Position numbers and translations under genes: made by a program | Shown here: positions 1,492 to 57,931 of the stretch, one piece after another | Layout of the letters: each line of letters starts with the position of its first letter | Position numbering within the stretch: position 1 is the stretch's first letter | Notes under the pieces: generated by a model | Database searches by the model: none | The model's input: only the letters and a program-made list of their open reading frames with translations | What the model was told of the DNA's origin: nothing | Virus record (IMG/VR): IMGVR_UViG_3300037508_001223 | Location: 1 to 58,070 of that record | From: a virus | Taxonomy: Duplodnaviria; Caudoviricetes | Direction: 5' to 3' (one strand) | Length of the DNA stretch: 58,070 nucleotides

Positions 1492-1973
1492 TGGCTCAGT
1501 ACACGACCAAAGCGGAAATGTCCAAGTTGTTTTCCGCGTGCGGTGTGGATTACCGAATCGAGGATGAGTCAGACCCGGAAAACTCGTTGGAGTTTTTCAT
1601 TGACGACGCATCTGTAATGATTGATATGTACGCTGGGCAGATTTACAATTCTTCGGATATGGCGAATTCGAAGTGGGTTCGCATTCGAGCGACTTGGATG
1701 GCCTGCTATTTTCTATCCCAGAAAAATGGCAATGCTTCCTTGTTCTTCAATAGGTACGATCAAATCCTTCAAGAGTTGCAAAAAGTCCAACAACAGCAGT
1801 TGCCTATACCTGGGCTTGCGACTTCTGTGGACATGGTTCCTACGTTGTCCAATATTGAACACGATCCTCGATACCGAGAAGCGACATTGCGGGTAGAGCC
1901 TCAAGTATCTACAGGTGCTAGCTCGTCAAAGCAAGATCTATCAAACCAGATCCTGCCAGAATGGCTATGGTAA
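1491..1973 (+). CDS. Head-tail adaptor (Mu gp36/DUF1320-like)
   Basis: N-terminal YTTKAEM, IDDASVMIDMY helix, ~160 aa, neck position. Confidence 0.6.
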   Translation: MAQYTTKAEMSKLFSACGVDYRIEDESDPENSLEFFIDDASVMIDMYAGQIYNSSDMANSKWVRIRATWMACYFLSQKNGNASLFFNRYDQILQELQKVQQQQLPIPGLATSVDMVPTLSNIEHDPRYREATLRVEPQVSTGASSSKQDLSNQILPEWLW

Positions 1974-1974
1974 C

Positions 1975-2508
1975 ATGGATTATCAATCCGCAAAAAAGCT
2001 ACTAGATGAGCTTCCTAAAATTTTAGGAGGACAGCCTACGGGCAGGTATACATACATTCTAAATGTATACCGAGCACATTTCTTGCATGAAATGTTCCGT
2101 TTGATACACTACTCCTTCATTGTTCGATCGGAGAGGGTGCCGGACCAGTTTGGGAACGAGTGGCAGCCTTTGAGTCCAAGGACGATCGCCAAGAAAAAGA
2201 AGCCCCATAAACGCGGTATGCTGCGTCTTCCGGCTTCCTCGACTCCTGAGTCAATCAACAGGGACACAGGCCGTCTGGCGAGGTCCTACGAGCCAGGAAC
2301 CCTTGCTGGGGCTGCTTACGTGCCGGTGAACATGGATCAGAAGGTGTCTTGGGTTGGGAGGAAGTTGGATGTTGGCACCCGAGTTCCTTACGCCAAAGAG
2401 GTGTCAAAGCTAAGACAGCTACTACCAAAAGACACACAAATCAAAATTACTAGGCTAGCAATTATTGCTGGCGTAAAGGCAATAAAGCCTATAATTGAGA
2501 AATTGTAA
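1975..2508 (+). CDS. Virion morphogenesis / tail completion protein (Mu gpG-like)
   Basis: G..WQPLSPRTIAKK, DTGRLARS and VGTRVPYA motifs; ATG at 1975 chosen as start. Confidence 0.7.
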   Translation: MDYQSAKKLLDELPKILGGQPTGRYTYILNVYRAHFLHEMFRLIHYSFIVRSERVPDQFGNEWQPLSPRTIAKKKKPHKRGMLRLPASSTPESINRDTGRLARSYEPGTLAGAAYVPVNMDQKVSWVGRKLDVGTRVPYAKEVSKLRQLLPKDTQIKITRLAIIAGVKAIKPIIEKL

Positions 2509-3095
2509 TGCACATTGGATACTTGGTACTAGCAGTTCGGGACGTGCTTAGGGAACGGCTTAGCCGCGATGGCTTGCCTTTCAAGCCGTTCGACCGTGAA
2601 GAGATTGAAGTATCGCCGGATGGAAGACCTCCAGCGTACATGGGATCGCGATTCATTGGAGTGTACGGTTCCCAGTGGTCTCCAGCGGTCGAAGACTCGA
2701 ACGTGGGATTGGATGCGTTGATGGGCGTCTCCTGCACGTACACGGTGCGAAGCCCTGTTTTCCCCCAGAAAAAAACCGGACCTGTCATGTATGCGGAAGT
2801 GTTGTCCGGTATGTGCTCGGTCTGCTGGGAGGTAGCCAAAGCGGTGTCAATGACCGGGGATAGCCTCACCGAAATTCCGCTTTACGAGGCTCTGGCAAAG
2901 TACCCTGATTATATTCCGTATAGCATTTTTGAGTATCTTAGGTGGCAGGGATGTGATCCTTCCCCTTCTCCGGTAACGGACGAGTGGTTCACTGCCCGAA
3001 ACGAGCATTTGATGGACGAGAACGGGCTTTCTATTGTAGGATACACCATGACGGTTCGTTTTGGCGGTGCTCGCGGAGGTTACGCTTACCGATGA
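2508..3095 (+). CDS. Putative tail terminator / neck protein
   Basis: Position and size only; TAATG coupled. Confidence 0.45.
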   Translation: MHIGYLVLAVRDVLRERLSRDGLPFKPFDREEIEVSPDGRPPAYMGSRFIGVYGSQWSPAVEDSNVGLDALMGVSCTYTVRSPVFPQKKTGPVMYAEVLSGMCSVCWEVAKAVSMTGDSLTEIPLYEALAKYPDYIPYSIFEYLRWQGCDPSPSPVTDEWFTARNEHLMDENGLSIVGYTMTVRFGGARGGYAYR

Positions 3096-3451
3096 TTCCT
3101 GTAAAGTGCGAAAGTCGTGAATGCAAGCTTGTTCTGGAGAATTATCGTAGGACTTACTACGTTGATTCTTTAGAGGCTCCTTGTCCAACTTGCGGCTTAA
3201 AGGGTGGCTTGGTTCCGTGTGAACTTATCCATCTAGTCGTAGAAAGCAAGTATGGACTTATGGAGTCCAAGCTAAACGGAAAAAGGTATAAATTTGCTTG
3301 TAATACAGCAAATAATATGTACCGTAGACCCATCAACACGCCAGGATTTCCAAGATACTATACATCAGAAGTAATTGGCTGTACTTGCCCTGAGTGCTTA
3401 CTCGAATACGGGGCAAAAGAAACCAATGGAGAATTGCTGATTAACAGCTAA
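3092..3451 (+). CDS. Cys-rich putative Zn-binding protein
   Basis: CxxxxC, CPTC and CTCPEC motifs; ATGA overlap start at 3092. Confidence 0.6.
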   Translation: MIPVKCESRECKLVLENYRRTYYVDSLEAPCPTCGLKGGLVPCELIHLVVESKYGLMESKLNGKRYKFACNTANNMYRRPINTPGFPRYYTSEVIGCTCPECLLEYGAKETNGELLINS

Positions 3452-3461
3452 GGAGCTAGCC

Positions 3462-9098: not shown

Positions 9099-9119
9099 TT
9101 CTCTCCCAGAAAATAACCA

Positions 9120-12185: not shown

Positions 12186-13834
12186 ACACTATATCATTCA
12201 AAGATAAGATCCCTGGACATCCTCGTGAGTGTAAAGGAGTTAAAAGCTCGACTTATACACCCGACCAATGTCGGATGTGTTGGCTTGCGACTTATAACCT
12301 ACACTATCGTAGACTTTGGAAAATTAGCCTTCCCAAAGAAATAGAATACTCTGTAGGGCCAGAGGAATACTATGGCTGTATCCATAGGAACCCTGAAAAG
12401 GTGGTGCAACCTGGATGCAGCTCTTGCTCTGGAATTTCTTACGTACACAAGTGTTCTAGTGAAAAAGCAGGACCAGGGTGGTGCTTTGTCGAGCTACTAG
12501 GCAAAGGTAGCTCACTATCCAGAAACAACGGCTACCGGGCTTGTGCCGAGTGTGGGTTTCGAGAGCCTGAGGCCGACTTGGAGATGCCTGTAGTTCAGTT
12601 CATGGAACTGCTCAACAAAGATCCTTCGGTTCTCCCTGATGGCTGGAGAAACTGGAAGGTTACTACCCAAGCTTACAAGACAGCTCTCCTGGAACAATCC
12701 AACGCCTCCTATTCCTATCCCAGAAAAAAATACAACGGCCGAGGGATCGTCATTGGGGCAGGAGGGGAGATCTACTTCAAGTGCGCCTTAGCCTCTGTAG
12801 CGGCCCTACGAGCCTCTGGGTGCTTCTTGCCGGTCCAATTCTGGTATTTGGGCCGGGAAGAGATGGACGCCCGTATGGTCAACTACGCTCGCTCTATTGG
12901 GGTCGAGTGCGTTGACGCCTCATCAGTAGTTCGCACCTTGGAGAAAAAGCCAAGGATTCTGTACGGTTGGGAGTTGAAAGCGTTTGCGATGATACATTGC
13001 CCTTTTGAAGAGGTGATGTATTTAGATGCCGATTGTATTGTAGCTAGAGACCCTAGTTATTTATTTTCAACAGAACAATACTTAGAGCATGGATCTATTT
13101 TTTGGCCGGATCTTTCCAACACGCCCGCTCCAGCTCCGTCAAAGCAGTTTTGGGAATCCCATGGAATGTTTGCCGATCCTGGTCCTGATTTTGAATCAGG
13201 GCAAATGGTTATAAACAAGGGCCGATGCTGGCGTGAGCTTCAAGTATCACAGTGGATTAACGAACACAGTGATTGGTTCTATCAACACATGTACGGTGAC
13301 AAAAGCACCTTTCGCGTAGCTTGGAGAGCTTGTGGTACTTCGTATGCGATGCCTCAAATGCCGGATTGGCGATGGCCTTCTATCGAGCAGTACGACTTTG
13401 AAGGCAATCTTGTGTTTCAACATTGCTGCCAAGGAAAGCCTCATCTTGTAGAAGGTCACGAGCTTTCTGTGTTGAAATACAGTCAAGTCGTATTAGAGGC
13501 CAAAAATGCTTGGTCAAAAAGCTGGCCTGGATCTTTGTACTATCCTAACTACAAAGCAATTGAAGGTTTGTACAAGATAGAGTCTACAGGCGAAGTTTTA
13601 GACTTCAAACCTTGTGGTAAAGTAGAAGTCACTATTACAGGATCTATCTTAGTAGACTCTCTTAGAGCCGACAAATACAGATGGGGCGTAAACGCCGATG
13701 AGCTAGTCTTGATTGGATTAGGAAAACGCTATCCTGGTGAAGGGCGATCTTGGCGAAAAGGGGTGATTGACTTCTTAAAGCGTACGGACAATGGCTGGAA
13801 AGGTTCAAAAATCACTTTAGTTCCAGCGTCTTGA
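12182..13834 (+). CDS. GT71/Mnn2-like alpha-mannosyltransferase with Cys-rich N-terminus
   Basis: GRGIVIGAGG, FEEVMYLDAD (DxD), IFWPD, FESGQMVINK and YGDKSTF motifs of the Mnn2/Mannosyl_trans3 family. Confidence 0.8.
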   Translation: MNTISFKDKIPGHPRECKGVKSSTYTPDQCRMCWLATYNLHYRRLWKISLPKEIEYSVGPEEYYGCIHRNPEKVVQPGCSSCSGISYVHKCSSEKAGPGWCFVELLGKGSSLSRNNGYRACAECGFREPEADLEMPVVQFMELLNKDPSVLPDGWRNWKVTTQAYKTALLEQSNASYSYPRKKYNGRGIVIGAGGEIYFKCALASVAALRASGCFLPVQFWYLGREEMDARMVNYARSIGVECVDASSVVRTLEKKPRILYGWELKAFAMIHCPFEEVMYLDADCIVARDPSYLFSTEQYLEHGSIFWPDLSNTPAPAPSKQFWESHGMFADPGPDFESGQMVINKGRCWRELQVSQWINEHSDWFYQHMYGDKSTFRVAWRACGTSYAMPQMPDWRWPSIEQYDFEGNLVFQHCCQGKPHLVEGHELSVLKYSQVVLEAKNAWSKSWPGSLYYPNYKAIEGLYKIESTGEVLDFKPCGKVEVTITGSILVDSLRADKYRWGVNADELVLIGLGKRYPGEGRSWRKGVIDFLKRTDNGWKGSKITLVPAS

Positions 13835-14392: not shown

Positions 14393-14856
14393 TGCACAGT
14401 TCCACTTGGAAAGCTTTTGAGCGTCGAGTTGCCGTGGATTTTGGGTCTACCAGGAACGCCTTGTCGGGCGGCAACTCCAAGGTAACTCGATCCGATTCCT
14501 TGCATCCACGACTGTTTATCAGTTGCAAGCATGGTCTTCGCAGCGCCTTCTGGAGTCTCTACCTGGAGGAGTTGCCGAAAGCCAAAAAGGAGGACAAGAC
14601 TGTAGTGCTCTGTCTTGGAAATAAAAACCATGAAGGGTACTTGGTCGCCTGTCACAGCAATGATCTCCAAAGCCTAGTCTGCGAGTATCTAATCTCTAAA
14701 GGCTGTACAGATCTAGCTTTAGAGCTAGCACAACGCGCCGCCTCTTCTCTCCCAGAAAAAATAGTTAGGGGAGTTGACTCAAAGCCTTCCTTGGTCTACT
14801 ATTCAAACTACCAAGGAGGTGGCGGATGTCTAAAAGAAAAGCGTACAAGCCATTGA
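14392..14856 (+). CDS. Hjc-like Holliday junction resolvase / PD-(D/E)xK nuclease
   Basis: WKAFERRVA..G..R..LSG....SD...xCK pattern. Confidence 0.55.
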   Translation: MHSSTWKAFERRVAVDFGSTRNALSGGNSKVTRSDSLHPRLFISCKHGLRSAFWSLYLEELPKAKKEDKTVVLCLGNKNHEGYLVACHSNDLQSLVCEYLISKGCTDLALELAQRAASSLPEKIVRGVDSKPSLVYYSNYQGGGGCLKEKRTSH

Positions 14857-15902: not shown

Positions 15903-16762
15903 AAAAGAAAATGAGAATTCCTGGTCCTGAAGAGCTGAATGAGCCGCCCGAGAAGCTGCTGAGCTATTTCATCTTCATCTTTGGCGAGAAAGGTATCGGC
16001 AAGACCAGTTTGATTTCCCAGTTTCCTGGAGCCGTTGTGGGGATGCTGGAACCGGGACGAAGAAACCTTCGTATTCGGCAGGTTGACATCACTGCTGGCT
16101 GGGAGACTGTGGAAGCGTTTGTCGATGCGGCGATCGAAGATGACACGGTTCAGACGATTGGCCTCGACACGGCCGACCGGTTGTACGAATCGGCTTTGGA
16201 CTACGTGTGCGAATCCAAGGGCATTGACCATCCTGGAACTATCAAGGATTTTGGAGCTACGTGGCGAGAGATCAAGGACACCTTTGAAGGACTTCTAACG
16301 AAGATCCATCACAGTGGAAAAGGACTTGTCCTAACGTCCCATGCCAAGTGGCGTGACCTGGAGCTTCGCAATGGAGCGGTGCAGCCTATCTTAAGCCCCA
16401 CATTGTCAGACTCACCTTTGACAACGATTAAGGCTATGGCGGACTACGCTTTTTATTATGGATACTATGGAGGTGGTCGCCGGGCATTGTTCCTGCGAGG
16501 GCATGAAGACCTCTGGTGTGCTTGCGGCAGCGCTGATCGGTTCTTGGACCCGGAAGGGCACCCGATCAAGACAATGCTGCTGGGTGAGTCGCCAGCGGAA
16601 GCTTTTGAGAGTCTGGACAAGGGGTTCGGCAATCAAATGCTGGATGCGGACGATGCCCTTCGCCAGGAGCTTGGAGACGACGTTGACACCGATGATCTCT
16701 CCCAGAAAAAAACCACGATTCCTTATCGAAAGAAAAAGAAGAAAGATAAGGACGGGAGTTGA
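15899..16762 (+). CDS. Sak4-like AAA ATPase (single-strand annealing recombinase)
   Basis: Walker A GEKGIGKT, TIGLDT, LTSH; between exonuclease and SSB. Confidence 0.75.
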   Translation: MKKKMRIPGPEELNEPPEKLLSYFIFIFGEKGIGKTSLISQFPGAVVGMLEPGRRNLRIRQVDITAGWETVEAFVDAAIEDDTVQTIGLDTADRLYESALDYVCESKGIDHPGTIKDFGATWREIKDTFEGLLTKIHHSGKGLVLTSHAKWRDLELRNGAVQPILSPTLSDSPLTTIKAMADYAFYYGYYGGGRRALFLRGHEDLWCACGSADRFLDPEGHPIKTMLLGESPAEAFESLDKGFGNQMLDADDALRQELGDDVDTDDLSQKKTTIPYRKKKKKDKDGS

Positions 16763-18646: not shown

Positions 18647-20539
18647 ATGGTTGCTGGATGTGCTATCGCTATCGACACAGAATGTACTGGTGTCGATTTT
18701 CACAGGGGAGATCTCCCCTACTGCGTATCTGCCTGTGATTCAAACGGCAATACGTTTGTCTGGAATTTTGAAGTAGACCCGTTTACTCGAAATGTCGAGC
18801 ATTCGGCTACTACGGTTCAAGAGATCCAAGACAAAATAAACTCTTACGACTGGGTTGTGTTTCACAATTCCAAGTTCGACATACACGCCTTGAACGCGAT
18901 TGGCGTCTTTGTTCCTCCAGAAAAAATCCAAGATACACTACTGCTTTCCCATCTTTTCAATAACCGGGAAAGTCACAAGCTTAAAGACTTAGCTTACAAG
19001 TATCTGGACTTCTCAAAAGAAGACGAGGAAGCTCTTCTTGCGTGCATAGCTTCCGCTCGACGGGTAGCCAAGAAACACAACTGGAAAATCATCAAAGCCG
19101 AGAACAAAGACTTGGAAGGCGAGTCTTGGATGAAGGCGGATGGTTGGGTTCCCGCACAGCTTATCAAAGCAGGTTTGGCTGATGACGAGGAATGGGGACA
19201 CGCTCTGTCCCGTTACGCCCTTTGCGACGTTGAACGAACCATGGGGTTGTGGTTTGCATTTTGCCAGGAAGACGATCTGCTGGAGCATTATGGTAGACAG
19301 TTAAAATTGATACCTGTCTTAGTAGGCATGGAAGATCGAGGGGTTTCTCTTAGACTGAAAGTATTGAACGATAGAGTAAACCACTATAAAGAACGAAGTG
19401 ATGAGCTGCTTGGCGTAATGAGAGATATGGTAGCCAACCCGGAGTTCAATCCAGGCTCGCCTAAGCAGCTTCAAGAAGTGTTGTTTAACACGCTAGGTTT
19501 TCCGGTAATAAAAACCGGAAAGACTGGACCTAGTACCGACAAGCATGTTCTTAAACATCTTTACCAAACACGTAAGCATCCATTTTTGGACAAATTGTTG
19601 GCTTTTAGAAAGTGCATGACGACAGCGAACTATCTCGTGTCGTACCAAGAAAAGCAGCACAATGGTCGTCTGCATTCCAGCTTCAACCCAATTGGAACCG
19701 ACACAACCAGACTATCATCTTCAAACCCAAACTTACAAAACGCGGCAAAAGCCGTAGACGTTGATCCTTCCAAGCAAGACATGGAAGTCTCGAAGGACAC
19801 TTACAACATTCGAGAAGTCTTTGGACCTGCGGAAGGTCGGGTGTGGCTTGACGCGGATTACAGTCAGTTACAACTTCGAATATTCGCTTTCGTGTCTGGA
19901 GAGACTAAGCTCATTGATGCTTTCGAGGAAGGCTGGGACGCACACGACTTCGTAGCTTGCCAAGTCTACAAAACAGACAATCCCACAAAGCAGCAAAGAA
20001 CAGTAGCCAAAGGTATCAACTTTGGGTTCATCTTTGGGGCGGGCGAAAACAAGCTTACCGCTCTGTCAGGCGACCCAAGTATCTGGCAAACGGTAAATAG
20101 GCTCTTTCCCAACGCCGTAAACTACTTGGAAAGAACAAGCAAGCAAGTATCACGAGATGGTTATGTAGACGTGGCAGGATACCGACTGCATGTTCCTATT
20201 GACCCAAGAAACGGTATGCCTAAAGGCTACACTGGTGTTTGTTACAAGGTGCAAGGTTTAGAGGGCTTGATAGTTAAACGAGCTATGGTATACTGGGACG
20301 AGTACCTACAAAATCTGTGTAGGCTTACAAAGTCCCACAATCACGCTTTTTTGACTTTGCAGGTACATGATGAGTTGATCGCCGACTTCATATCTCTTCC
20401 CAGAAAAAATTTAGTTCAGCATGGAAACAACTTGAAGCGGTTGATGGAGAGGGCTGGCCGGGATTATGGTGTCGCAACACCGGCCGAGATGTCGTTAGTA
20501 ACCAAGTCTTGGGATTGCTCGGAAGAATTGAGGGAGTAG
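18647..20539 (+). CDS. polA: DNA polymerase, family A, with 3'-5' exonuclease
   Basis: Exo DTE, HNSKFD, YALCD; TTRLSSSNPNLQN; motif A DYSQLQLR, motif B R..AKGINFG, motif C QVHDEL. Confidence 0.95.
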   Translation: MVAGCAIAIDTECTGVDFHRGDLPYCVSACDSNGNTFVWNFEVDPFTRNVEHSATTVQEIQDKINSYDWVVFHNSKFDIHALNAIGVFVPPEKIQDTLLLSHLFNNRESHKLKDLAYKYLDFSKEDEEALLACIASARRVAKKHNWKIIKAENKDLEGESWMKADGWVPAQLIKAGLADDEEWGHALSRYALCDVERTMGLWFAFCQEDDLLEHYGRQLKLIPVLVGMEDRGVSLRLKVLNDRVNHYKERSDELLGVMRDMVANPEFNPGSPKQLQEVLFNTLGFPVIKTGKTGPSTDKHVLKHLYQTRKHPFLDKLLAFRKCMTTANYLVSYQEKQHNGRLHSSFNPIGTDTTRLSSSNPNLQNAAKAVDVDPSKQDMEVSKDTYNIREVFGPAEGRVWLDADYSQLQLRIFAFVSGETKLIDAFEEGWDAHDFVACQVYKTDNPTKQQRTVAKGINFGFIFGAGENKLTALSGDPSIWQTVNRLFPNAVNYLERTSKQVSRDGYVDVAGYRLHVPIDPRNGMPKGYTGVCYKVQGLEGLIVKRAMVYWDEYLQNLCRLTKSHNHAFLTLQVHDELIADFISLPRKNLVQHGNNLKRLMERAGRDYGVATPAEMSLVTKSWDCSEELRE

Positions 20540-22642
20540 ATGAGCACTCGGAACTTTGCTAATTCATTCGCATTTCATGGAGTAAACTTAGAGGTAAACA
20601 ATGAAGGAAACTTAGTAGCTGATTGCCCATTCTGTGGATCGGAGTATCACTTTTCAGTAAAAGCGGAGACTGGCCAGTGGAGGTGTTTCAAGTGCGAAGA
20701 TCTAGGCAATCGAGGAAACCTCTACACGTTCCTTAGAAGGATCTGGGAAAAATGCAGAGCCAGTACAAGTCCTGATTTGTTGCAGCATCTTTCATACTCG
20801 CGAGGAATCTCCGTAAAGACGCTTACCCGTAATGGGGTCTGCAAATCTCCTCATCTAAACAAATGGTTGATACCTGTATGGAAACTGGATACAAGCTCTG
20901 GTAATCCCTCGTTGGTCAACCTCAAGGTATGGGGCAAATGGGATGATGGAAAAAAGCCATTTATCAAGGGAACGCCTAACTGTGCTCAGCACTTATACGG
21001 TAGGTTAGTTCCAGACGATTACGACCCAAGAGTCTTACTAGCCGAAGGAGAATGGGATGCTCTTGTATTGATGGAACAGTTCCCTGAAAGAACTGTTTTA
21101 GGGGTTCCTGGAAGTGCTTCATTCAAGCCTGAATGGGCTAATTACTTTTCAGGAAAAGATGTTATCTTGTTGTACGACAATGATGAGGCCGGTCGAAATG
21201 GAACTAGGCTAGCCACTAACACACTGTACAGCTCACGTGTTCCTCCAAAGCGGATACGAGCTTTGGCATGGCCCGAAGGAACACCAGAGAAGTGGGACAT
21301 TCGAGACCAGTACAAGAAAGATTCAGAAGGATTGGAATCGTTTATCATGGAGAATTTGGTGGAAGTTATCGCCGATGACATCAACGTGGATCGAAACAGT
21401 TGGGATGAGGTTTTGGAAGACTTCCGAAACGTCTACCATGTCGATCGAACCTTTGCGGACGTTTGCACTCTAGTCGCAGCTTCCTGCGTGGCTGCCAGGG
21501 TTCCTGGAGACCCTCTGTGGATGTTTTTGGTAGGTCCGCCTTCCACAAGCAAGACAGCGATCGTAGACGCCTTCTCGTTCGACAAGGAGCACTGCGAGAC
21601 GATCAGCAAGATCACCGCCACGCAGTTAGTCTCTGGGTGGAAAGTACCCGGCTCCGACGAGGATGTCTCGATCTTCCCGCTGCTTCGTTCCCGAACGCTG
21701 CTCATCCAGGATTACACGACGATCATCGCGATGCCTTCGGCCCAGCAGGAAGACCTTTACGGAATGCTTCGGGAGGCTTATGGCGGTCGTGTACGCATCC
21801 GCTACGGCAACGGAAAGATTGTGGACCAGGAGGACGTGTACTTTTCCATGGTTGCCGCTGTTACCGATGTCATTCGCCGGGACAACAAAGCGGACCTAGG
21901 CGAGCGGTTTCTCAAGATCGAAGTTTTGGGCGACGACTACGATCCTATGGCGGTGACGCTTGCGGCCATGAACGGGGTGGTGAAGGACGCCAGCCGCACT
22001 CGTAAACTCCAGATCCTTGGGGAGTCGATCAAGAAGTTTCTGTCCTCGATCCGTGTGGACTACAACAACCTGCCCGAGATCACGGACGAGTACCGGACCC
22101 AGATCGGCAACCTCTCCTTGGTGGTGGGCTACCTGCGTGCTATCGTCCACAAAGACGGCGACGACATCTCGGTGCGTCCCCGCGCGGAGGGCGGTCCTCG
22201 TGTGGCCAAGCAGCTTGTAAAGCTGGCCATTTGCCTGCTTCTACTCCAGAAAAAAACCCGCATGGACGACGAGGTGATGCGTCTCGTCCGCAAAGCCGCA
22301 GTGGATACGGTCTGGGGCTTCTCCATGGAAGTTTGCCAGTTGATTGCCAAGTGCCAGGAGTCTGGCGGACTGACAACTGACGAGATCGCCGCCCGTCTCC
22401 AGGTCCCCAAGACCTCGCTCCGAAGAATCGTGGACGATCTGCAAAAGCTGGGAGTTCTTCATCGAGCCAAAGTGGGCAATGGGCAAGGAGCGGGTCGAGA
22501 CTCCAACCTGTGGCAGTTTAGCCCGACCTTCGGCTCCATCTGGAACTTGGCGGGGTTGACCTCTTCAGACAGGGGAAAGACTCCTCCGGCCCAGATCAAG
22601 AAACTGAAGAAGAAGGCGATCCTTGTGGAGAACGACGAATGA
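20540..22642 (+). CDS. Primase-helicase: Zn finger + TOPRIM + AAA+ (MCM-like) + winged HTH
   Basis: CPFC..CFKC, AEGEWD, YDNDEAG, Walker A GPPSTSKT, GERF, C-terminal HTH. Confidence 0.85.
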   Translation: MSTRNFANSFAFHGVNLEVNNEGNLVADCPFCGSEYHFSVKAETGQWRCFKCEDLGNRGNLYTFLRRIWEKCRASTSPDLLQHLSYSRGISVKTLTRNGVCKSPHLNKWLIPVWKLDTSSGNPSLVNLKVWGKWDDGKKPFIKGTPNCAQHLYGRLVPDDYDPRVLLAEGEWDALVLMEQFPERTVLGVPGSASFKPEWANYFSGKDVILLYDNDEAGRNGTRLATNTLYSSRVPPKRIRALAWPEGTPEKWDIRDQYKKDSEGLESFIMENLVEVIADDINVDRNSWDEVLEDFRNVYHVDRTFADVCTLVAASCVAARVPGDPLWMFLVGPPSTSKTAIVDAFSFDKEHCETISKITATQLVSGWKVPGSDEDVSIFPLLRSRTLLIQDYTTIIAMPSAQQEDLYGMLREAYGGRVRIRYGNGKIVDQEDVYFSMVAAVTDVIRRDNKADLGERFLKIEVLGDDYDPMAVTLAAMNGVVKDASRTRKLQILGESIKKFLSSIRVDYNNLPEITDEYRTQIGNLSLVVGYLRAIVHKDGDDISVRPRAEGGPRVAKQLVKLAICLLLLQKKTRMDDEVMRLVRKAAVDTVWGFSMEVCQLIAKCQESGGLTTDEIAARLQVPKTSLRRIVDDLQKLGVLHRAKVGNGQGAGRDSNLWQFSPTFGSIWNLAGLTSSDRGKTPPAQIKKLKKKAILVENDE

Positions 22643-23961
22643 GCAAGAAACGAAAAGTGGCCTCCGATGCTCCACCCCAAGGCATCCAGGAACTGGTATG
22701 GGTAGACCCTCGTACTTTGGCGGATAATCCACTCAACTGGAAGATCCATCCTGAAAGCCAACGTAAGGGACTTCGGGCAGCCATCAAGACCGATGGGTGG
22801 GCGGATGCGTTGGTCTATAACCGAGCGACCGGTCGTTTGATTGACGGGCATGGTCGTAAGGAAGAAGCCATCAACGCCGGGTGGGAGACTGTTCCCGTCT
22901 TAGTGGGCGAGTGGTCAGAGGAGGCCGAGCGCCGACTTTTGCACTCCAAAGACGTGCTTGGCTCCATGTACTCCACCCATAGCGAGAAATTCGCCAACCT
23001 GACCACGCTGGTGGCCCAAGGAAGGGACTTCCTCGACAAGGTGGACCATGAGACCAAGAAGACGCTGGAATCGTTTATGGAGCGAACTGCGGCCATTCCT
23101 GACGCCATCGACAGTGGCGACATGTCGGCCAGTCCGCTACCGCTGACCAGTCTTTCTCCCAGAAAAAAACCAGTAACAGCCCAGGATCGTCAGGAGGAAT
23201 TGGACGCCGCTGTTGAAAGATCCGAAGGGGTGGAGCAGACGGTCTTACGGGAAGACATCTTCTTCCCGGCGATCAATCCTTATGGAATTCCCGATCTGCT
23301 TTTTGATATGCTTGCTACTGTGGAAGACGTTCCTGACAGGACGTACTCCAGGACCGAGGAGTCCAGTAGCTCCACTTCCTACTACTGCCATTCGTCCCGT
23401 CCTTTCGATCGGGAGGAGCGTGGCATTACTGGAGGAGTGCTGGGCTTCTACTGTGAAGACTATCGGTTCGAGCAAGCCTATGATTCCATAGGCGACTTCG
23501 CCTTGGCTTTGCGGGATGAGAACTGGAACGCCATTGTGGCTCCAGACTTTTCGATGTACGAGGAGTGGCCTTACGCTGTGCGGCTATGGAATCTTTACCG
23601 TAGTCGTCACGTGGCAAGGTACTGGCAGGAAGTAGGAATCAAGGTAATTCCAAGCCTTTCAAGGCTGATTAGTCTGTCTCCATACACTGAAAGAAAGGCA
23701 GACTTGGGAATTGACACCATTCCCGAGTTGACGCCCGTGGTAGCTACGCAGTGTAGGACTATCCTTCAGAACGGCGGAGACTTCAAAGCTTTTGCCAATT
23801 GGTTGTCGGCCGCTATCGAGAAGATCAAACCCCAGAGAGTTATCATTTATGGCGGAAACGAGCATCAATCGCGGTTTCTCGGGTATTTGCCCAAGCAGCA
23901 TGATGGACTTCGATACATCCTGCTCAACAGCTTTATGGCCGAACGACGAAAGGGCATGTAA
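22639..23961 (+). CDS. ParB/Srx-like N-domain fused to a DUF4417-like domain
   Basis: NPLNWKIH, LIDGHGR; C-half FYCEDYRFE, APDFSMY, NLYRSR...YWQ..GIKVIP. Confidence 0.75.
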   Translation: MSKKRKVASDAPPQGIQELVWVDPRTLADNPLNWKIHPESQRKGLRAAIKTDGWADALVYNRATGRLIDGHGRKEEAINAGWETVPVLVGEWSEEAERRLLHSKDVLGSMYSTHSEKFANLTTLVAQGRDFLDKVDHETKKTLESFMERTAAIPDAIDSGDMSASPLPLTSLSPRKKPVTAQDRQEELDAAVERSEGVEQTVLREDIFFPAINPYGIPDLLFDMLATVEDVPDRTYSRTEESSSSTSYYCHSSRPFDREERGITGGVLGFYCEDYRFEQAYDSIGDFALALRDENWNAIVAPDFSMYEEWPYAVRLWNLYRSRHVARYWQEVGIKVIPSLSRLISLSPYTERKADLGIDTIPELTPVVATQCRTILQNGGDFKAFANWLSAAIEKIKPQRVIIYGGNEHQSRFLGYLPKQHDGLRYILLNSFMAERRKGM

Positions 23962-24338
23962 TGGCGAGAATGAGCAAGAAGTTCAAGAACAACGCCCAGT
24001 CGCAAACGCCTGCCAATCCACAGGAGCAGTCGGATGCGGAGCGTGTCCGAAAGTCGGGACCAAAGACCAGGAGCACTTCTGCCTCAAGTCCTCCAGGGCT
24101 TCCCGTGAGTCCGACGAACCGAACGCCAAGGAACGTGCCCAAAGAGCCTCTCCAACCACAGAGGCCCGTTCAGCCCCAGCAACCGACACAGAGGCCCAAC
24201 ATTCTTGATGCCTCTTCCAGAAAAAAACCATCTTTTGCTAGGTCAGCTAAGAAACTGGTAGTAAAGGCTGCTAACAAGGCTAAGAAGATCTTTGGCATAC
24301 TGACTGGACGCTCCAAAAAGAAGCGTGCTGGGATTTAG
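23961..24338 (+). CDS. Basic Pro/Gln/Lys-rich protein
   Basis: TAATG coupled; low-complexity basic sequence. Confidence 0.6.
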   Translation: MARMSKKFKNNAQSQTPANPQEQSDAERVRKSGPKTRSTSASSPPGLPVSPTNRTPRNVPKEPLQPQRPVQPQQPTQRPNILDASSRKKPSFARSAKKLVVKAANKAKKIFGILTGRSKKKRAGI

Positions 24339-27490: not shown

Positions 27491-27645
27491 GCATAGGTAT
27501 GCGTATTCCCATACATACCTATTCCAGTATGTTCTCTCTTTCTTCTTCCTTTTCCCTCGTCATACACACAATTATACAGATCCGATTTTCGAGGTCAAGG
27601 CCACGTCGCCTTTTTCTCCCAGAAAATAATTTTCTTAGTCTATAG

Positions 27646-31759: not shown

Positions 31760-31937
31760 TTTTTTTCTGGGAGAGAACCGTGAGCCAAAAGCCGTACTAC
31801 TACAAGATCATCCTCAAGGATGGTACTTATGAGACAGTAGAACACGCTTGGGAAATTGACCTATACATTGGCCCTTGTCCTGATTTAATTGACCGCATCG
31901 AAGTCGTAACCCGTTGATCCTTATATGGAGCCTTGCC

Positions 31938-35496: not shown

Positions 35497-36597
35497 ATGA
35501 CCACCATCAACACAGATCTGGCTCGTAAGTTTTCGAAGCTACTCAAGGATTTTCAACAGCGAAATGGTCTTTCGTTCTCCGACTTGGCTTTTGGCCTTCT
35601 AGTGAAAGAAGAGGATCTTCGCAAGTGGATGGGAACCGATAAGGAGGTTCCTGTCGAGCCACCGGTTAGGGAGTACGACAGGCTTTTATCGCTCTTGACA
35701 TCTTTCAATCTTATGTTCTCTTCCAGAAAAAAACCCGAACCCAAGGTATGGCTGGACTTCGTAGAGATTCCTGGCTATGCGAAGGAAGGCTCGGAGCTAG
35801 TCATTGAGCCTTTCCTCATGTCCACTACGCCGATCACCAACGAAGTCTACGGGGTGTTCCTGGAAGCTACCAATCACCGTAAGCCTACATACTGGCACAA
35901 AGCTGAGTACAATCGCCCCAAGCAGCCTGTGGTAGGCGTTAGCTGGGACGACGCTATGGCCTTCTGTGATTGGGCGGGTGTTTCGCTACCCTCTGAGGCT
36001 CAGTGGGAGTACGCCTGTCGAGCCGGTTCCACTACCAAGTACCACTTTGGGGACGATCAAAAGCAGCTTGGCGAGTATGCTTGGTACTATGATAACTCGA
36101 AGGGCAAGCTACAGGATGTTGCCCAGAAAAAGCCGAATGCCTGGGGTCTCTACGACATGCACGGCAATGTCTGGGAATGGACTGCGAATCATTGCGATAT
36201 TCAAGGCCGGGTACTAAGTAAGGTAAGTGGCGGAGGCTGGGACTTCTCCGCCGGGTTCTGCCGGTCGTCGTACCGCCTCTGGTACGATACGTCAAAACAG
36301 CTCGATGACCTAGGCTTCCGAGTCCTCAAGGGTGGTAGTTGGACAGATTTCTACAATGGTGTCAATTCCCAAGAGCGTGCCCCTATTTGGTCCGACCACC
36401 AGAGCGGAATTGTAGGATTCCGAGTCCTCAAGGGTGGTAGTTGGTGCGGCGACGGGGACAACTGCCGGTCGGCGGCCCGCGACAGTCTCGATCCGTCGAG
36501 ACGGAACAATGGTCTAAGTTTCCGTGTCGCCCAGCAGATCGACCAACGAATCTCCTACGTTGCCTGCCAGTCGGTAGACCCACAGAATCCCCAATAG
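35497..36597 (+). CDS. HTH + formylglycine-generating-enzyme (FGE/C-lectin fold) protein with triplicated C-terminal module
   Basis: [44 protein letters not shown], three GGxW...FRV modules. Confidence 0.9.
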
Positions 36598-39177: not shown

Positions 39178-39178
39178 C

Positions 39179-42047: not shown

Positions 42048-42458
42048 ACACAGATACGTAGTAGGCTTGGTCTAAGGAGTCCAATATCAACTCCAGTATT
42101 TTCATGCTCGGGTTCTGCATTTGTAGAAGCTCCGCAGAAGTTAAGACTTCGGCTATTTGCTTCCTCAAAGGCAGGATCTTGCTACGTTCTTCCTCGTTCA
42201 TAGTCTCTCCCAGAAAAAAACATCACTTCCCGTAGATCAAAGCTATTCAGCCTCCCACTTCGCGATCGTCTTAAGAATTACCTCAGCATCAAAAATTGTA
42301 AGATCCACGAATGACAAGCCTGTAACAAGAGGATCGCACTTTGAGCCTTCTCCTTGTTCTTGCCGAAGTTGTTTTAGGTTGATATCAAGTACCAACCTAG
42401 CACTTCCCACGATGCCTTGGAGCTTATAGACAAGTTGCCGTCTTTTTTCCGGTATCAT
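42013..42458 (-). CDS. Two small hypothetical proteins (42013-42201 and 42243-42458)
   Basis: Packed minus-strand ORFs. Confidence 0.5.
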
Positions 42459-42901: not shown

Positions 42902-42941
42902 TATATAGCTCCTATGGTTATTTTCTGGGAGAAGAAGAGTC

Positions 42942-44881: not shown

Positions 44882-45202
44882 ATCTTACCACAAGCCCTAA
44901 TAGAGTCAATGGGAGTGGGAAAATTTCTTGGGAAATCCCAAAAATGGTTTTTTTCTGGGAGAGAAGAGGTTTAGGTACTTGACTCCCCTTTCCCCTTAAG
45001 CTAGCCTAGGAGCGCAGCGACGACGGCTAGCGCTACTCTTCTCCTTCTCCCTATATATAGGGGGAAATCCCAATAGATTATCTCTCCCAGAAAATAACCT
45101 CTTTAGAGTAGATTATCCCATAGGGGATAAGCCCATCTTCTCTCCCAGAAAAAAACCATTTTTCAGTAAGGGGTAGACTTGAGCTTTCTCTTGGAGTAGA
45201 CT
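44882..45202. promoter_or_regulatory. Divergent promoter region with a perfect 28-bp inverted repeat
   Basis: IR at 44940-44967 and 45136-45163; leftward TTGACT-16-TAAGAT, rightward TAGACT-17-TAGACT. Confidence 0.75.
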
Positions 45203-45692: not shown

Positions 45693-45694
45693 CC

Positions 45695-54943: not shown

Positions 54944-54989
54944 GCCGTTTCTCTCCCAGAAAAAAACCATATTCCGATAGGAGACAATA

Positions 54990-55911: not shown

Positions 55912-57096
55912 ATGGCTGACACGAGTGCGATTACGATTCAGCAGGCTTTCCAAACTCCCTTTGTCAAGGGTGTGGTTAGCCAGTTTCCTACGCCGGACAA
56001 TGCGTTCCAACGGTTTTATGGGTCGATGACGAATCGTACCTTTACGCCGGTTCGCGTATTCGGTTGGGATCAGTTCAACAAAACCCGTACCATCGCTACG
56101 ATGGCGGCTCCGATGACGGATGCGAACGTCATTCGTCGTCAGAAAATCGGTACGAAGACTGGGGCTTTGCTCCGCATGGCGGAAAAGCTTCAGATCTTCG
56201 ACGAGGAGATCGCCAACCTTCGCCCGCCGGGTGCTCCTATTGGCACTTTGGATGCTCGTGGCGAACAATGGGCTGTTCGTCAGATTGATTTTATGACGCA
56301 ACGCCATCGTAACTTGATGGAGTTTGCGTTGGTAAAGACGTTCTTGGGTGGTTTTGGTTTGGCTCAAACGGGGCAGCAGTTCCGTATGACCGAGCTTAAC
56401 GCCTCGGGCAACTCTTTCGACATCGACCAGGGAATTCCCGCATCTCACAAGGATCAGTTGGCCTTGGACGATGATGGAAGCAACCTGATCGACAAGTCGT
56501 GGGAAGATCCTTCGGCGGATCTTGTCAGCTTCTTCTTCGGGTTGAAGCGGGCGGCCATTCGAGAGACGGGCTTTGATCCGAAGCACGTCTGGATCAGTGG
56601 AAAGACTGCTGGGTACTTGATGCAGAATATTGGCCTCCAGTCGATTGGGGGCTCGGCTAATCGAGTCTGGAACACGGTTACGGGTCAACCTGCCCAGGTC
56701 GATCCTGCGAGCCGTAATCTGGGCGGCTACAGCATCAAGTTCAACGCGGTGCCGTGGCTTGACTTCCACGTCAATGACGCGGTTGTTTCTCTGGGAGATG
56801 GCTCCGATCCGCAAGGAACGGATGCTACGACCGTTGCTGGAACGACTCGAATTCTTCCCATCAACCGAGCCATCATTACTCCTGATCCGAGTCCTGAATG
56901 GTTCACGGTCTACGAGGGGCAAGAACCGGTACAAGAGCAAGTCAATTCGAGTCCTACGGTGGCTCGTGGCTTCCATTCCTGGAGTCGTCGAATGCTGAAC
57001 GCCCTGGCTCCTAGCCGGGAAGCGTACATGCTCGACAACTTCCTGCCGGTGCTCGTGATTCCTAACGCGATCTACTGTCCTACAGTCGTGTTCTAG
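55912..57096 (+). CDS. Major capsid protein (HK97 fold, lambda E-like)
   Basis: 394 aa; W.DPSAD, LPVLVIPNAI C-terminus; synteny; followed by a terminator. Confidence 0.8.
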   Translation: MADTSAITIQQAFQTPFVKGVVSQFPTPDNAFQRFYGSMTNRTFTPVRVFGWDQFNKTRTIATMAAPMTDANVIRRQKIGTKTGALLRMAEKLQIFDEEIANLRPPGAPIGTLDARGEQWAVRQIDFMTQRHRNLMEFALVKTFLGGFGLAQTGQQFRMTELNASGNSFDIDQGIPASHKDQLALDDDGSNLIDKSWEDPSADLVSFFFGLKRAAIRETGFDPKHVWISGKTAGYLMQNIGLQSIGGSANRVWNTVTGQPAQVDPASRNLGGYSIKFNAVPWLDFHVNDAVVSLGDGSDPQGTDATTVAGTTRILPINRAIITPDPSPEWFTVYEGQEPVQEQVNSSPTVARGFHSWSRRMLNALAPSREAYMLDNFLPVLVIPNAIYCPTVVF

Positions 57097-57122
57097 GACG
57101 GGATTACGTGGATAACAAGACG

Positions 57123-57159
57123 CTCCCGTCGTTGACAACAGCGATGGGAGTTTCTGTTT
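57123..57159 (+). terminator. Rho-independent terminator
   Basis: CTCCCGTCGTTG/CAGCGATGGGAG followed by TTTCTGTTT. Confidence 0.85.
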
Positions 57160-57191
57160 CAGGCCCTAGAATAAGGTAAGGGGCGTGATGA

Positions 57192-57530
57192 GTGTCGGAC
57201 CAAGAAAAAACCTTGCTCCTTCTTCAGTCGGCGACAGTAGCGACAACATTCCTGGCGTCGGCTGTACTAGGGGGAATCGGATGGGTTCAGAGATCCAGCA
57301 ATCGGACAAAGCTTGGCTGCGTAGTGGCATCAGCGAACTGTGGTGCTGTAGGCTTTCTTTTTGCAGGAGTGCTCTTGGTGTACTCGCAAGAAGCTTACCT
57401 ACAAGCTTTTATGAGTGGTGCATCGACGGGGTGGATCACGGGAAGATATGGTCTGAAGAAACTACCCGAAATCCTGGGTCTCTTGATGCGTGTTCTAAAA
57501 GTGTTGAGAGACGAATCAATGAAGAGATAG
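57192..57530 (+). CDS. Holin-like membrane protein
   Basis: 112 aa, about three hydrophobic segments, basic C-terminus. Confidence 0.5.
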   Translation: MSDQEKTLLLLQSATVATTFLASAVLGGIGWVQRSSNRTKLGCVVASANCGAVGFLFAGVLLVYSQEAYLQAFMSGASTGWITGRYGLKKLPEILGLLMRVLKVLRDESMKR

Positions 57531-57931
57531 GCTTAAAGATTCTAGGAGCGATTGCTCCAATGGCCTTTGTGGTTATCTGTATGTTTGGGATGTTCTTCGG
57601 CCTGCTTAACCTCCAGAAAATAAACGCTTACGCCAATGTACCAAAGTCCATTGAAGTGGCTCCAAAGCCTGTCAACACTTCCACAAGCGGTGTTGGGTTG
57701 GTTTCGTTCGACTCCACCGCCCGAAACTGGTAGTCTATTGCCTCCTGGCCCCGAGGAATCGGCCACACCGCCTTGCGTGTCTTGCGGCCATTCTTCTCCA
57801 GAAACATGCCCTTTTTGCGGTGGTCTCAAAGGCTATGCGTCAGTGCCTCCATGTCGGGCTTGCATTAATCGTGGACCGGTTCCAGTATAAAAACCAAATT
57901 CGATAAGCAGCGGATATATGGGGAGCTAAAT

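Follow-up and report, generated by a model that had tools for sequence, protein, structure and literature searches.

An uncultured lake phage carries a one-directional word at about two dozen gene junctions, tentatively read as a docking site for a factor gating transcription

The complete 58-kb genome of an uncultured tailed phage of lake origin (58,070 nt, analysed in full and called the window here) carries a one-directional word of about 20 nt, in its fullest consensus T-TCTCTCCCAGAAAAWA-ACCA, which is real beyond chance, is under selection at the nucleic-acid level and is very probably a transcription signal. Tentatively, and at somewhat less than even confidence, we read it as an oriented docking site for a co-evolving putative phage factor that would gate transcription at gene junctions, stoperator-like although not a member of the stoperator family. 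A first-pass annotation had proposed a genome-wide binding code for a phage protein; the nucleic-acid rather than protein constraint, the genome-wide spread and the likeness to stoperators are borne out, while a role in DNA polarity, a fixed position before the -35 box and the proteins named as candidate readers are not.

With up to two mismatches the 16-mer TCTCTCCCAGAAAAWA occurs 21 times in the window against 0.12 expected, 18 times on the + and three times on the - strand, and 0/100 dinucleotide shuffles reached 21 matches. At one mismatch or fewer there are 13 forward and two reverse matches, and the pattern read backwards gives none in either direction. A 21-nt weight matrix with a cut-off score above 17 finds 22 sites in the window, 18 on the + and 4 on the - strand (the latter including the borderline site 38578- with a score of 17.2); in 200 third-order Markov simulations the best-scoring site averaged 13.1. 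Codon-preserving shuffling, proposed earlier as a check, leaves the excess in place: nine + strand coding copies score above 17, compared with a mean of 0.98 and a maximum of 5 in 300 shuffles, and six score above 24, compared with 0.17 and a maximum of 2. All three reading frames are represented among the coding copies, in line with the different frames noted earlier from their peptides. At all 26 positions named by the first-pass annotation the core is present, as CCAGAAAA at 24 of them and as the variant CCAGAGAA at 36861 and 54250; a weak copy at 33082 is absent from that list. Copies occur in all genome modules (Table 1) at irregular distances of 58 nt to 9.1 kb, and the spacing of 1-2 kb described between 12.7 and 24.2 kb is correct (~0.9-2.2 kb). 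An Rfam search of the window returned a tRNA only and no match for the motif, and 80-nt windows at the sites are less stable than random windows (-14.3 versus -19.1 kcal/mol, p = 0.001). The motif is predicted to be without RNA structure, which we count for a roadblock at the DNA level.

Table 1. Copies of the word in the window, with weight-matrix scores, and counterparts in relatives
Position	Strand	Score	Location	Neighbouring feature or counterpart
1712..1731	+	16.1	weak copy, inside ORF 1491-1973	
2759..2778	+	24.4	inside ORF 2508-3095	
9100..9119	+	34.6	fills gap from stop of 7482-9098 to ATG at 9120	homologous G001 copy at 47524
12714..12733	+	21.9	glycosyltransferase gene, just 5' of catalytic domain	G001 copy at homologous place, other reading frame
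14746..14765	+	26.2	3' end of ORF 14392-14856	ends 8 nt short of -35 of promoter-like site 14774-14802; homologous G001 copy at 53357
16696..16715	+			
18911..18930	+	17.9	weaker copy, DNA polymerase gene	G001 copy at aligned place, 58353
20394..20413	+			
22240..22259	+	20.7	primase gene	no conserved copy in G001
23153..23172	+	30.7	linker of ParB-like/DUF4417 gene	weak G001 copy at aligned place, 1220
24211..24230	+	26.7	gap 5' of gene 24472-25101	homologous G001 copy at 2934
27613..27632	+	28.1	intergenic, upstream of helicase gene	13 nt before promoter-like site 27646 (11/12); G001 copy upstream of its helicase, 8405
29231..29250	+	28.6	intergenic, immediately 3' of helicase stop codon	11 nt before promoter-like site 29262
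31757..31776	-	32.2	perfect copy facing against transcription	reverse complement GGGAGAGA at ribosome-binding-site position before GTG at 31780
32603..32622	+	33.2	3' end of ORF 32291-32644	8 nt before promoter-like site 32631
33082..33101	+	14.2	weak copy close to 3' end of ORF 32702-33145	
35717..35736	+	30.8	5' part of ORF 35497-36597, ahead of FGE-sulfatase domain	
42204..42223	+	30.3	perfect copy facing against leftward gene block	reverse complement placed as ribosome-binding site for ATG of 42013-42201(-)
42915..42934	-	29.2	intergenic, oriented with leftward genes	15 nt before start of 42458-42901(-)
44945..44964	-	35.6	leftward-facing, divergent control region	35 nt before leftward promoter-like site 44909-44882
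45081..45100	+	31.3	first rightward-facing copy, divergent control region	
45139..45158	+	35.6	second rightward-facing copy, head of packaging and structural genes; outward-facing counterparts in homologous region of G001 and L032	
54245..54264	+	24.5	variant AGAGAATA in portal-like gene 53579-54943	
54950..54969	+	35.6	intergenic, between portal-like and scaffold-like genes	heads scaffold-capsid unit, which ends at terminator-like hairpin 57122-57151; copy at same junction in L035 and L036

The copies are enriched at gene junctions, agree with the direction of transcription and stand upstream of promoters. Coding sequence makes up 84% of the window, yet 12 of its 18 best sites fall at least partly outside ORFs (p = 2e-6); the same is true of 19 of 30 sites in G001, the complete 62-kb genome of a relative that is 86% coding (p = 1e-9). 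In G001, 10/30 sites share nucleotides with the stop codon of the ORF before them, and the window copies at 9100 and 29231 begin 1-2 nt after a TAG. The strand bias follows the genes: orientation is associated with gene direction in the window (two-by-two table 2, 1; 1, 17; p = 0.041), in G001 (2, 0; 3, 25; p = 0.023) and in both combined (p = 0.0076), and in both genomes it reverses in the block of leftward genes. A few perfect copies point the other way (2/21 in the window, 3/30 in G001), which a binding site on duplex DNA explains more easily than an RNA signal does.

The strong strand bias might suggest a signal of DNA polarity or architecture apart from transcription, be it packaging or ejection polarity, Chi- or KOPS-like words, strand-specific nick sites, recombination boundaries or a small mobile repeat. 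Copies in long genes lacking intergenic space suggest a need for genome coverage, and the copy in the G001 polymerase gene sits within an insertion relative to the window, both of which would suit such a signal. We nevertheless regard it as highly improbable, since orientation flips with the leftward block, the copies are concentrated at junctions, their spacing is irregular, and a change in concert of half the word at conserved positions (see below) contradicts a drifting mobile repeat. Chi or KOPS words are typically 5-8 nt, and the present word of ~20 nt is far longer.

On the same strand, nine sites precede a sigma-70-like site by 8-60 nt, and no case was found in which the motif lies downstream of such a site on the same strand within 150 nt. 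This order would be demanded by an insulator or end-of-unit signal, but not by an independent promoter. No motif site overlaps a promoter hexamer, the closest ending 8 nt before a -35. Five copies (14746, 32603, 29231, 27613 and 45139) do carry CCAG 22-29 nt ahead of a -35-like hexamer, confirming the five that the first-pass annotation had placed 23-30 bp upstream of a -35 box, the hexamers after 45139 reaching only 8/12 as judged by eye; a fixed position does not follow, the gap varying from 8 to 60 nt and the CCAG-to-(-35) distances being 22, 22, 25, 25, 27, 29, 31, 49 and 57. An upstream promoter element or activator site for sigma-70-like promoters, at which the A-tract or a bound factor would contact the polymerase alpha subunit, might be seen in seven cases in which the A-tract precedes the expected start by ~45-63 nt, the distance from which upstream elements act. 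However, the spacing is unphased, most copies have no promoter behind them (only 3/30 have one in G001), and the motif is missing at strong G001 promoters such as TTGACA-18-GATAAT, which makes this reading the least probable of those weighed here and hardly to be expected.

G001, the capsid protein of which is 54% identical to that of the window phage, has ~30 copies of AGCATTCGCCAGAAAAAACC, with the core as in the window and a different 5' half, and further variants are found on four shorter related contigs. The word is therefore described by a common half, CCAGAAAAAACC, which is kept across relatives with capsid proteins only 54-80% identical, and a lineage-private half, TCTCTCC in the window and GCATTCG in G001. 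About 10 junctions and three in-gene places carry a copy in both genomes, one of the three being read in different frames. Between the relatives the positions of the motif are conserved while the 5' half has been altered in concert at ~25-30 sites per genome. That relatives keep its places but differ in the 5' half makes the motif very probably a transcription signal, and the change of that half in concert speaks for a reader that co-evolves with it.

The main rival within transcription is a phage-specific promoter starting ~12 nt after the first C of CCAG and served by a host RNA polymerase redirected by a phage factor or by a phage polymerase, both putative, in which the private 5' half would determine specificity and the DNA would melt at the A-rich core. 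We consider it unlikely on balance, although the motif is co-oriented with and upstream of genes, its 5' half changed in concert, the genome looks virulent and the late region has hardly any sigma-70-like promoter candidates. The unit of motif, scaffold, capsid and terminator is kept in the window, L035 and L036, the motif immediately precedes the capsid gene in G001, and in L034 it follows the capsid terminator. In 4/30 G001 copies an ATG follows the first C of CCAG by exactly 12 nt, two of these being real gene starts (6573, 25358), and in 12 G001 copies followed by a ribosome-binding site a purine comes next after AACC; that preference is lost (10/16) in copies without such a site after them, both counts being made by eye. 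Further points weigh against a promoter: near sigma-70-like sites the motif is upstream in all nine cases, 5/51 copies face against genes, and the conserved copies in the polymerase, glycosyltransferase and ParB-like genes have no in-frame start behind them. G001 copy 28360 stands where genes converge and no rightward gene follows, a place marked in the window by a terminator-like hairpin; as a promoter it would drive transcription into the 3' end of the convergent gene. G001 copy 17437 is directly followed by a terminator-like hairpin. Six-frame searches found no sigma region 2 and no RNA polymerase matching PF00940, the latter a weak blank because the PF00940 control matched nowhere. Promoters of T7-like single-subunit RNA polymerases are contiguous words of ~20 nt, co-oriented with genes and often at gene ends, and their specificity part varies between related phages. 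The window word is similar in length, co-orientation and variable specificity part, but its copies stand upstream of host-type promoters and inside genes, and no single-subunit polymerase gene was found, with the same weak control.

An RNA-level junction signal in polycistronic mRNA, either a processing or 3'-end site or a re-initiation or enhancer element for translation, would resemble the start-associated sequences (SAS) of cluster K mycobacteriophages and is in our judgement distinctly improbable. Co-orientation with genes, a place between stop and start codons, the predicted lack of structure and the poverty in G would suit it, and a 3'-end element closing the upstream unit would sit, as the motif does, ahead of the next promoter; in 11/19 non-coding G001 copies a called start codon follows within 0-50 nt, and no ribosome-binding site separates motif and ATG at the real starts G001 6573 and 25358 and window 9120. 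It is opposed by the retention of perfect reversed copies, by the conserved in-gene copies without a start codon behind, by the missing Rfam match and by the window, where a start is nearby for just 3/12 non-coding copies and a promoter-like site intervenes before the gene in six, so that the motif would be missing from that gene's own transcript. The private 7-nt half, changing in concert, would still require a sequence-specific reader. In the sections of the SAS report drawn on here (PMC3203893), the SAS is likewise asymmetric, in one orientation with rare reversed copies, and adjoins start codons with the upstream stop sometimes inside, as the start-proximal G001 copies recall; its function is given as not known. 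It differs in being 13 bp long with a ribosome-binding core, AGGAG, which the window word lacks in sense orientation, in lying 3-7 bp from the start codon, whereas window copies are mostly parted from the gene by a promoter-like site, and in being confined to the non-structural genome half (PMC3203893).

No repressor-like protein is found among ~75 ORFs scanned against Pfam or PHROGs, and six-frame searches of both complete genomes gave no HTH_3, tyrosine recombinase or serine recombinase; on this evidence the phage looks virulent and offers no obvious place for a silencer of the lysogeny type. Integrase, partition system and sigma factor were likewise not found for the window phage. The proteins that had been suggested as readers gain no support from family matches: 36745 belongs to a small-terminase-like family (41/54 homologues), 35497 has an FGE-sulfatase domain, 22639 combines a ParB-like N-terminus with DUF4417, the sole match of 29340 is an unknown-function PHROG, and 17563 has no family match.

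The operators of the phage P1 C1 repressor sit at promoters. With 17 bp, asymmetry and 22 dispersed copies (PMC8546580) they resemble the window motif, but P1 is temperate with a known repressor. Closer in lifestyle is the T1-like phage TLS, which in the portion of its report used here is virulent, has no polymerase or sigma gene and few sigma-70 promoters, and carries ~20 copies of a ~21-nt intergenic direct repeat in the direction of transcription, of function not known, for which its authors discuss stoperator, enhancer and upstream-element readings (PMC11447400). The TLS repeat, aaATAGCACnnnTTGnTAAAA, is unrelated to the window word and lies, unlike it, ~76 nt upstream of start codons; conserved in-gene copies and private and conserved halves are not described for it in that portion (PMC11447400). 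According to the relevant passages on cluster A mycobacteriophages (L5, Bxb1, TipsytheTRex; PMC9283540, PMC6550527), stoperators are also asymmetric, in >20 copies genome-wide, mostly in short intergenic spaces and correlated in orientation with transcription, which makes the earlier comparison apt; their motifs differ between subclusters (PMC6550527), and such variation between related phages implies a co-evolving reader in cluster A and in the window lineage. Cluster A phages are without an RNA polymerase of their own, and none was found in the window phage either, but the stoperator is 13 nt long (PMC9283540, PMC6550527). The window motif further differs in lacking promoter overlap and in that half of it is conserved at a capsid identity of only 54-80%, and its phage in having no repressor, integrase or partition system found and in coming from a lake, not from actinobacterial culture. 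Binding and blocking of elongation are putative for the window word.

For an oriented roadblock speak the excess over chance, the junctions, the abutment on stop codons, the orientation, the order relative to promoters, the reversed copies, the concerted change and G001 copy 28360. Against it stand the missing repressor-like protein, the virulent look, the lack of overlap with promoter hexamers, the more promoter-like copy heading a terminated scaffold-capsid unit (window, L035, L036), the G001 ATGs at 12 nt and copies near starts, which fit a start signal, and the late region nearly devoid of sigma-70-like candidates. That a protein binds, that the phage encodes it and that it blocks or insulates rather than starts transcription are the three things we infer. 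The word would then be a cis-acting DNA signal active in one direction, at which a sequence-specific factor, most likely phage-encoded, would dock where genes or operons meet and gate RNA polymerase moving in gene direction, as an oriented roadblock or insulator like that of mycobacteriophage stoperators. One reader may have two surfaces, one for CCAGAAAAAACC and one for the private half, and the latter would co-evolve with the sites.

The word that recurs along this lake-phage genome is a real, selected signal that is conserved across the phage lineage. The 16-mer TCTCTCCCAGAAAAWA is matched 21 times in the window at up to two mismatches, where 0.12 matches are expected, and this count was reached by 0 of 100 shuffles; at up to one mismatch it has 13 forward and 2 reverse copies, and the backward control has 0. 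In an alignment of the 16 best copies, information extends one base upstream and four bases downstream of the 16-mer, for a consensus of T-TCTCTCCCAGAAAAWA-ACCA, and a weight matrix scores 22 sites above 17 (18 on the plus and 4 on the minus strand, one being borderline), compared with a mean top score of 13.1 in third-order Markov simulations. The motif is not palindromic and has 21-22 sites in the window. The first-pass annotation had attributed the copies inside genes to a constraint on the DNA, and this was borne out by 300 codon-preserving shuffles, in which every protein and each gene's codon usage were kept: nine plus-strand coding copies score above 17 against a mean of 0.98 (maximum 5), and six coding copies score above 24 against a mean of 0.17 (maximum 2). 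Coding copies also stand in differing frames, as had been claimed, with all three reading frames used; this and the excess over the shuffles together place the constraint on the nucleic acid. In IMG/VR the exact 16-mer has only single occurrences, in 18 other contigs, none of which carries many copies. Lake-metagenome contigs compared over 27001-47000 represent near-identical populations, and it is uninformative that, of the 196 differences, the 40 listed all fall outside motif copies. HIP1-type cyanobacterial palindromes are absent.

The protein collection contains 23 homologues of the capsid protein. Single-protein locus searches with the large terminase and the capsid protein found nothing, and related DNA was recovered by a search with an alignment of the capsid homologues. 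The only other complete genome, G001, has 62,452 bases and a capsid protein 54% identical to that of the window. Its commonest 10-12-mers revealed a word of its own, AGCATTCGCCAGAAAAAACC in the window's orientation, with 30 sites, 25 of them in one direction; the core CCAGAAAAAACC is common to both genomes and the preceding seven bases differ (TCTCTCC in the window, GCATTCG in G001). The window's exact 16-mer occurs once in G001 (24839-24854 in reversed coordinates, L027), 64 nt after the G001-type copy heading the late operon, and at the homologous place the window carries a tandem pair with a spacing of 58 nt. Shorter related contigs carry further versions (see the table), and in one of 18 kb with a capsid protein 69% identical (L037) a clear motif was not found. 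Homologous places of copies were assigned by blastp and tblastn synteny. Three in-gene copies lie at aligned places in the window and G001, each carrying the 5' half typical of the phage it belongs to: in a glycosyltransferase, where PRKK in the window corresponds to RQKN in G001 and the copy is therefore read in different frames, in the DNA polymerase, and in the ParB-like protein, whose G001 copy is weak. Five further in-gene copies are not common to the two genomes. This concerted change of one half at kept positions points to a trans-acting reader with shifted specificity and is evidence against a drifting repeat.

Genes of the window, versions of the word in related contigs, and homologous places of motif copies
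Feature	Window	Relatives	Remark
Large terminase	45695-47269		
Major capsid protein	55912-57096		lambda-E-type
DNA polymerase	18647-20539		family A
Primase	20540-22642		
Helicase	27710-29230		
ParB-like/DUF4417 protein	22639-23961		
Word GTTTCTCCCCAGAAAAAACC		L034 and L036	capsid protein 80% identical
Word AAACCCCAGAAAACCA		L035	capsid protein 70% identical
CCCCGGAAAATAAT-like words		L032	capsid protein 65% identical
Divergent control region	copies present	G001, L032	outward-facing copies in all three
Junction before 857-aa tail gene	9100	G001 47524	
3' end of small nuclease-like gene	14746	G001 53357	then promoter
Upstream of helicase	27613	G001 8405	
After helicase	29231	G001 10674	
Before 209-aa gene	24211	G001 2934	
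Portal-like/scaffold junction	copy present	L035, L036	G001 copy one junction later, before capsid gene

The window spans an entire IMG/VR virus record (58,070 bases, CheckV completeness 100) and encodes one tRNA-Met. Its genes form a rightward block at 1-40.5 kb, a leftward block at 40.8-44.9 kb and a second rightward block from 45.2 kb on. Tyrosine and serine recombinases (PF00589, PF00239), HTH_3 and sigma region 2 were absent from six frames of both complete genomes, with positive controls, and the phage therefore looks virulent. Lake and freshwater metagenomes hold DNA near-identical to the window. No close relative was found among GenBank phages, so that the host is not inferable, and the sole genome match for the capsid protein, a Pirellulaceae MAG, is at 27% identity too distant to name one. 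A search of RNA runs listed none containing this phage. Both genomes strongly avoid short palindromes: GCGC has 0.23 of its expected frequency in the window and 0.05 in G001, and each genome lacks at least 12 six-base palindromes altogether, which suggests a host rich in restriction systems.

Several loci of these genomes are distinctive in their own right. A stretch of about 4 kb after the large terminase, which includes 47272-47901 and 49782-50555, is absent from G001, and its genes encode, among others, a metallopeptidase domain of the matrixin type and a weak cytochrome-c-like one; the large terminase of G001 (25358-28192, reversed record) has a 420-aa N-terminal extension. In four lake metagenomes the contig depth over the FGE-sulfatase-domain part (35672-36338) of ORF 35497-36597 is about 7-40 times that over its neighbours, with many loose ends, and the domain is therefore common to many other organisms in those samples. 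Within the rightward packaging and structural block, a 446-aa gene lies on the opposite strand (51485-52825, minus); it is 42-55% identical in G001, L032, L035 and L037, has no family match, gave scores of at most 0.81 when it was put to an Atlas search as a reader candidate, and truly starts at the ATG at 52825, which is preceded by a GGAGG ribosome-binding site. The gap at the convergent gene junction (51370-51480) holds a strong sigma-70-like site, TTGACT-16-TATGAT with TG, followed after about 45 nt by an 11-pair GC-rich terminator-like hairpin (51443-51472); together these might make up a gene for a small RNA some 70-80 nt long. The divergent control region (44920-45125) contains, besides the motif, the palindromes TTGGGAAATCCCAA (44928), GGGGGAAATCCC (45060), CCCTATATATAGGG (45049) and TTATCCCATAGGGGATAA (45105), which may be operators for a dimeric regulator, an origin or a packaging site. 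The early region of G001 (L028-L030) has five near-identical promoter-like cassettes (11285, 12082, 13718, 15646 and 17116 in reversed coordinates) of the form TTGACA-18-GATAAT with TG, several immediately followed by a GC-rich hairpin; we take them to resemble the promoter-stem-loop cassettes of T4-type phages.

The copies of the motif gather at gene junctions. Twelve of the 18 best window sites and 19 of the 30 in G001 are not wholly inside an ORF, in genomes that are 84% and 86% coding, respectively (p = 2e-6 and p = 1e-9). Four window copies (9100, 29231, 54950 and 42934-, the sign denoting the minus strand) begin 1-7 nt past a stop codon, and 10 of the 30 G001 sites extend over the upstream ORF's stop codon, with TAG often within the word. 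Orientation is associated with gene direction (Fisher p = 0.041 in the window, 0.023 in G001 and 0.0076 combined); 5 of the 51 sites in both genomes are reversed relative to genes, and copies are found in the structural, replication and leftward blocks. Words of the Chi or KOPS type are 5-8 nt long and oriented by replication or DNA-end polarity, not by genes. The motif differs from them in being about 20 nt long, in flipping with the leftward genes and in its junction enrichment, and on these features the packaging, Chi or KOPS polarity entertained by the first-pass annotation fails, as does a role in nicking. Some other function in DNA polarity or architecture has a very slight probability.

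Near promoters the motif keeps strictly to one side. Six window copies (14746, 16696, 27613, 29231, 32603 and 44964-) are followed after 8-43 nt by a sigma-70-like site on the same strand, no copy stands in the 150 nt downstream of a scan-listed one, and in both genomes together nine copies are upstream of a nearby promoter and none downstream. All copies stay clear of the listed -35 and -10 hexamers, the closest ending 8 nt upstream of a -35. Such positions might suggest an upstream element or an activator site, a reading made highly improbable by the unphased spacing to the -35, by the lack of a promoter behind most copies, especially in G001, and by strong G001 promoters that lack the motif. 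We tentatively favour the motif as a putative oriented docking site at which a factor would gate the passing RNA polymerase at junctions, acting as a roadblock or insulator. This reading is preferred because of the strict upstream placement, because the motif abuts stop codons, because G001 has a copy at the convergent junction in place of the window's terminator-like hairpin, because perfect reversed copies are retained, and because conserved in-gene copies have no start codon behind them. The reversed copies 31776- and 42204+ are perfect and point against transcription, and in both cases the reverse complement GGGAGAGA stands at the ribosome-binding-site position of the next gene; GGAG is present only in the reverse complement and not in the sense word. 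The divergent control region is flanked by three copies, 44964- facing left and 45081 and 45139 facing right.

Start codons bear on two further explanations. Directly before one lie three of the 12 non-coding window copies (9100 at 2 nt, 42934- at 15 nt and 54950 at 22 nt), and 11 of the 19 non-coding G001 sites are 0-50 nt upstream of a called start. In four G001 copies an ATG follows exactly 12 nt after CCAG, which, along with a conserved motif-scaffold-capsid-terminator unit, a motif that follows the terminator in L034, late genes almost devoid of sigma-70-like candidates and the virulent lifestyle, speaks for a phage-specific promoter. T7-like phages encode the RNA polymerase cognate to such promoters, whereas here T7-type polymerase (PF00940) was not found in six frames of both genomes, a weak blank since the control was silent, and the large ORFs gave no polymerase match; we consider a promoter somewhat unlikely. 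An RNA-level signal for processing or re-initiation would fit the stop-motif-start layout, but it is at odds with the reversed copies, with those inside genes and with those preceding a promoter, and is quite unlikely. The 80-nt windows at the sites fold more weakly than random ones (-14.3 vs -19.1 kcal/mol, p = 0.001) and an Rfam search returned tRNA only, so that a hairpin or RNA family was rejected. The remaining probability falls to something not considered.

Genome-wide, one-directional junction words are known in a few cultured phage groups, and the motif belongs to this kind. To our knowledge, the mechanism has been proven for the cluster A stoperators only, the words of cluster K and T1-like phages being unexplained. 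By analogy, the closest known system is the operator/stoperator set of cluster A mycobacteriophages, whose monomeric repressors, in the cited passages, bind more than 20 asymmetric 13-bp sites in short intergenic spaces, in a single orientation relative to transcription and with motifs varying between subclusters (PMC9283540, PMC6550527). The likeness lies in the more than 20 asymmetric, mostly short-intergenic sites per genome with an orientation tied to transcription; the word here is longer, at about 20 instead of 13 nt. The likeness is thus one of layout, membership being defined by a temperate lifestyle, a repressor and sites within promoters. Some cluster A sites lie within promoters as operators, whereas here the listed -35 and -10 hexamers stay free. 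Cluster A phages are temperate with integration or partition functions, whereas the window and G001 lack PF00589, PF00239 and a parABS set; they encode a monomeric immunity repressor with an HTH and a stoperator domain, and once bound it blocks elongation in one orientation only, an effect that would here belong to the putative reader. The start-associated sequences of cluster K are described as having a ribosome-binding core and being confined to non-structural genes (PMC3203893). They share with the motif the nearness to start codons seen in G001, but they lie 3-7 bp from these (2-22 nt for the three window copies, 0-50 nt in G001), contain the core that the sense word lacks, and keep to the non-structural half, whereas copies here extend through all blocks. 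A close analogue in lifestyle and layout is provided by the 21-nt intergenic repeats of virulent T1-like phages, of unexplained function in the cited passage (PMC11447400), and a further one by the 22 dispersed asymmetric C1 operators that the cited text gives for P1 (PMC8546580).

No reader of the motif was found when about 75 ORFs were compared with Pfam or PHROGs. A repressor-like match was likewise lacking in these ORFs, many small ones of which have no family, in a search that covered Pfam or PHROGs families and, in six frames, HTH_3. The ParB-like proteins, which had been proposed as binders, do not form a parABS set. Helix-turn-helix character is clear in a single protein (36745-37563); of its 433 distant homologues, 54 were sampled and 41 of these match a small-terminase PHROG. 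The protein's AF2 model (pLDDT 75) has as best PDB match, a weak one (E = 0.58), the phage small-terminase-like nonamer 2ao9, and the protein was set aside as small-terminase-like. Its gene and the large terminase are 8 kb apart, on opposite sides of the leftward block. PDB sequence searches with 9120, 53579 and 36712 gave nothing useful, and none of the leftward-block proteins has a homologue in G001. Two small and very basic proteins (26836-27108, pI 12.0, and 25046-25276, pI 10.3) have no family match and are kept in G001, where the aligned parts are 66% and 63% identical; it is possible that they are nucleic-acid binders and hence readers of the motif. The outcome of the search implies a reader from an unrecognised family or from the host.

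What is new is the two-part structure, with one conserved and one private half, the keeping of positions inside genes, and the setting in an apparently virulent freshwater phage. Positions, in-gene places included, are kept between genomes whose proteins are just 40-55% identical, in a lineage with no recognisable repressor, sigma factor or polymerase. This makes the lineage a clean comparative system, in which the reader can be found by covariation and the start-versus-stop question can be tested. On a more novel reading, which we hold unlikely, this uncultured and apparently virulent freshwater lineage would punctuate its transcription by a two-part code, one half (CCAGAAAAAACC) lineage-wide and the other private to each phage, the latter read by a co-evolving factor of a yet-unrecognised family that would halt or insulate the host's RNA polymerase at junctions during lytic growth, with reversed copies re-used as ribosome-binding sites. 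If the reader is a new DNA-binding family, it would offer a compact, orthogonal and orientation-dependent regulatory part. If the punctuation code is true, stoperator-type control would extend beyond lysogeny and beyond actinobacterial phages.
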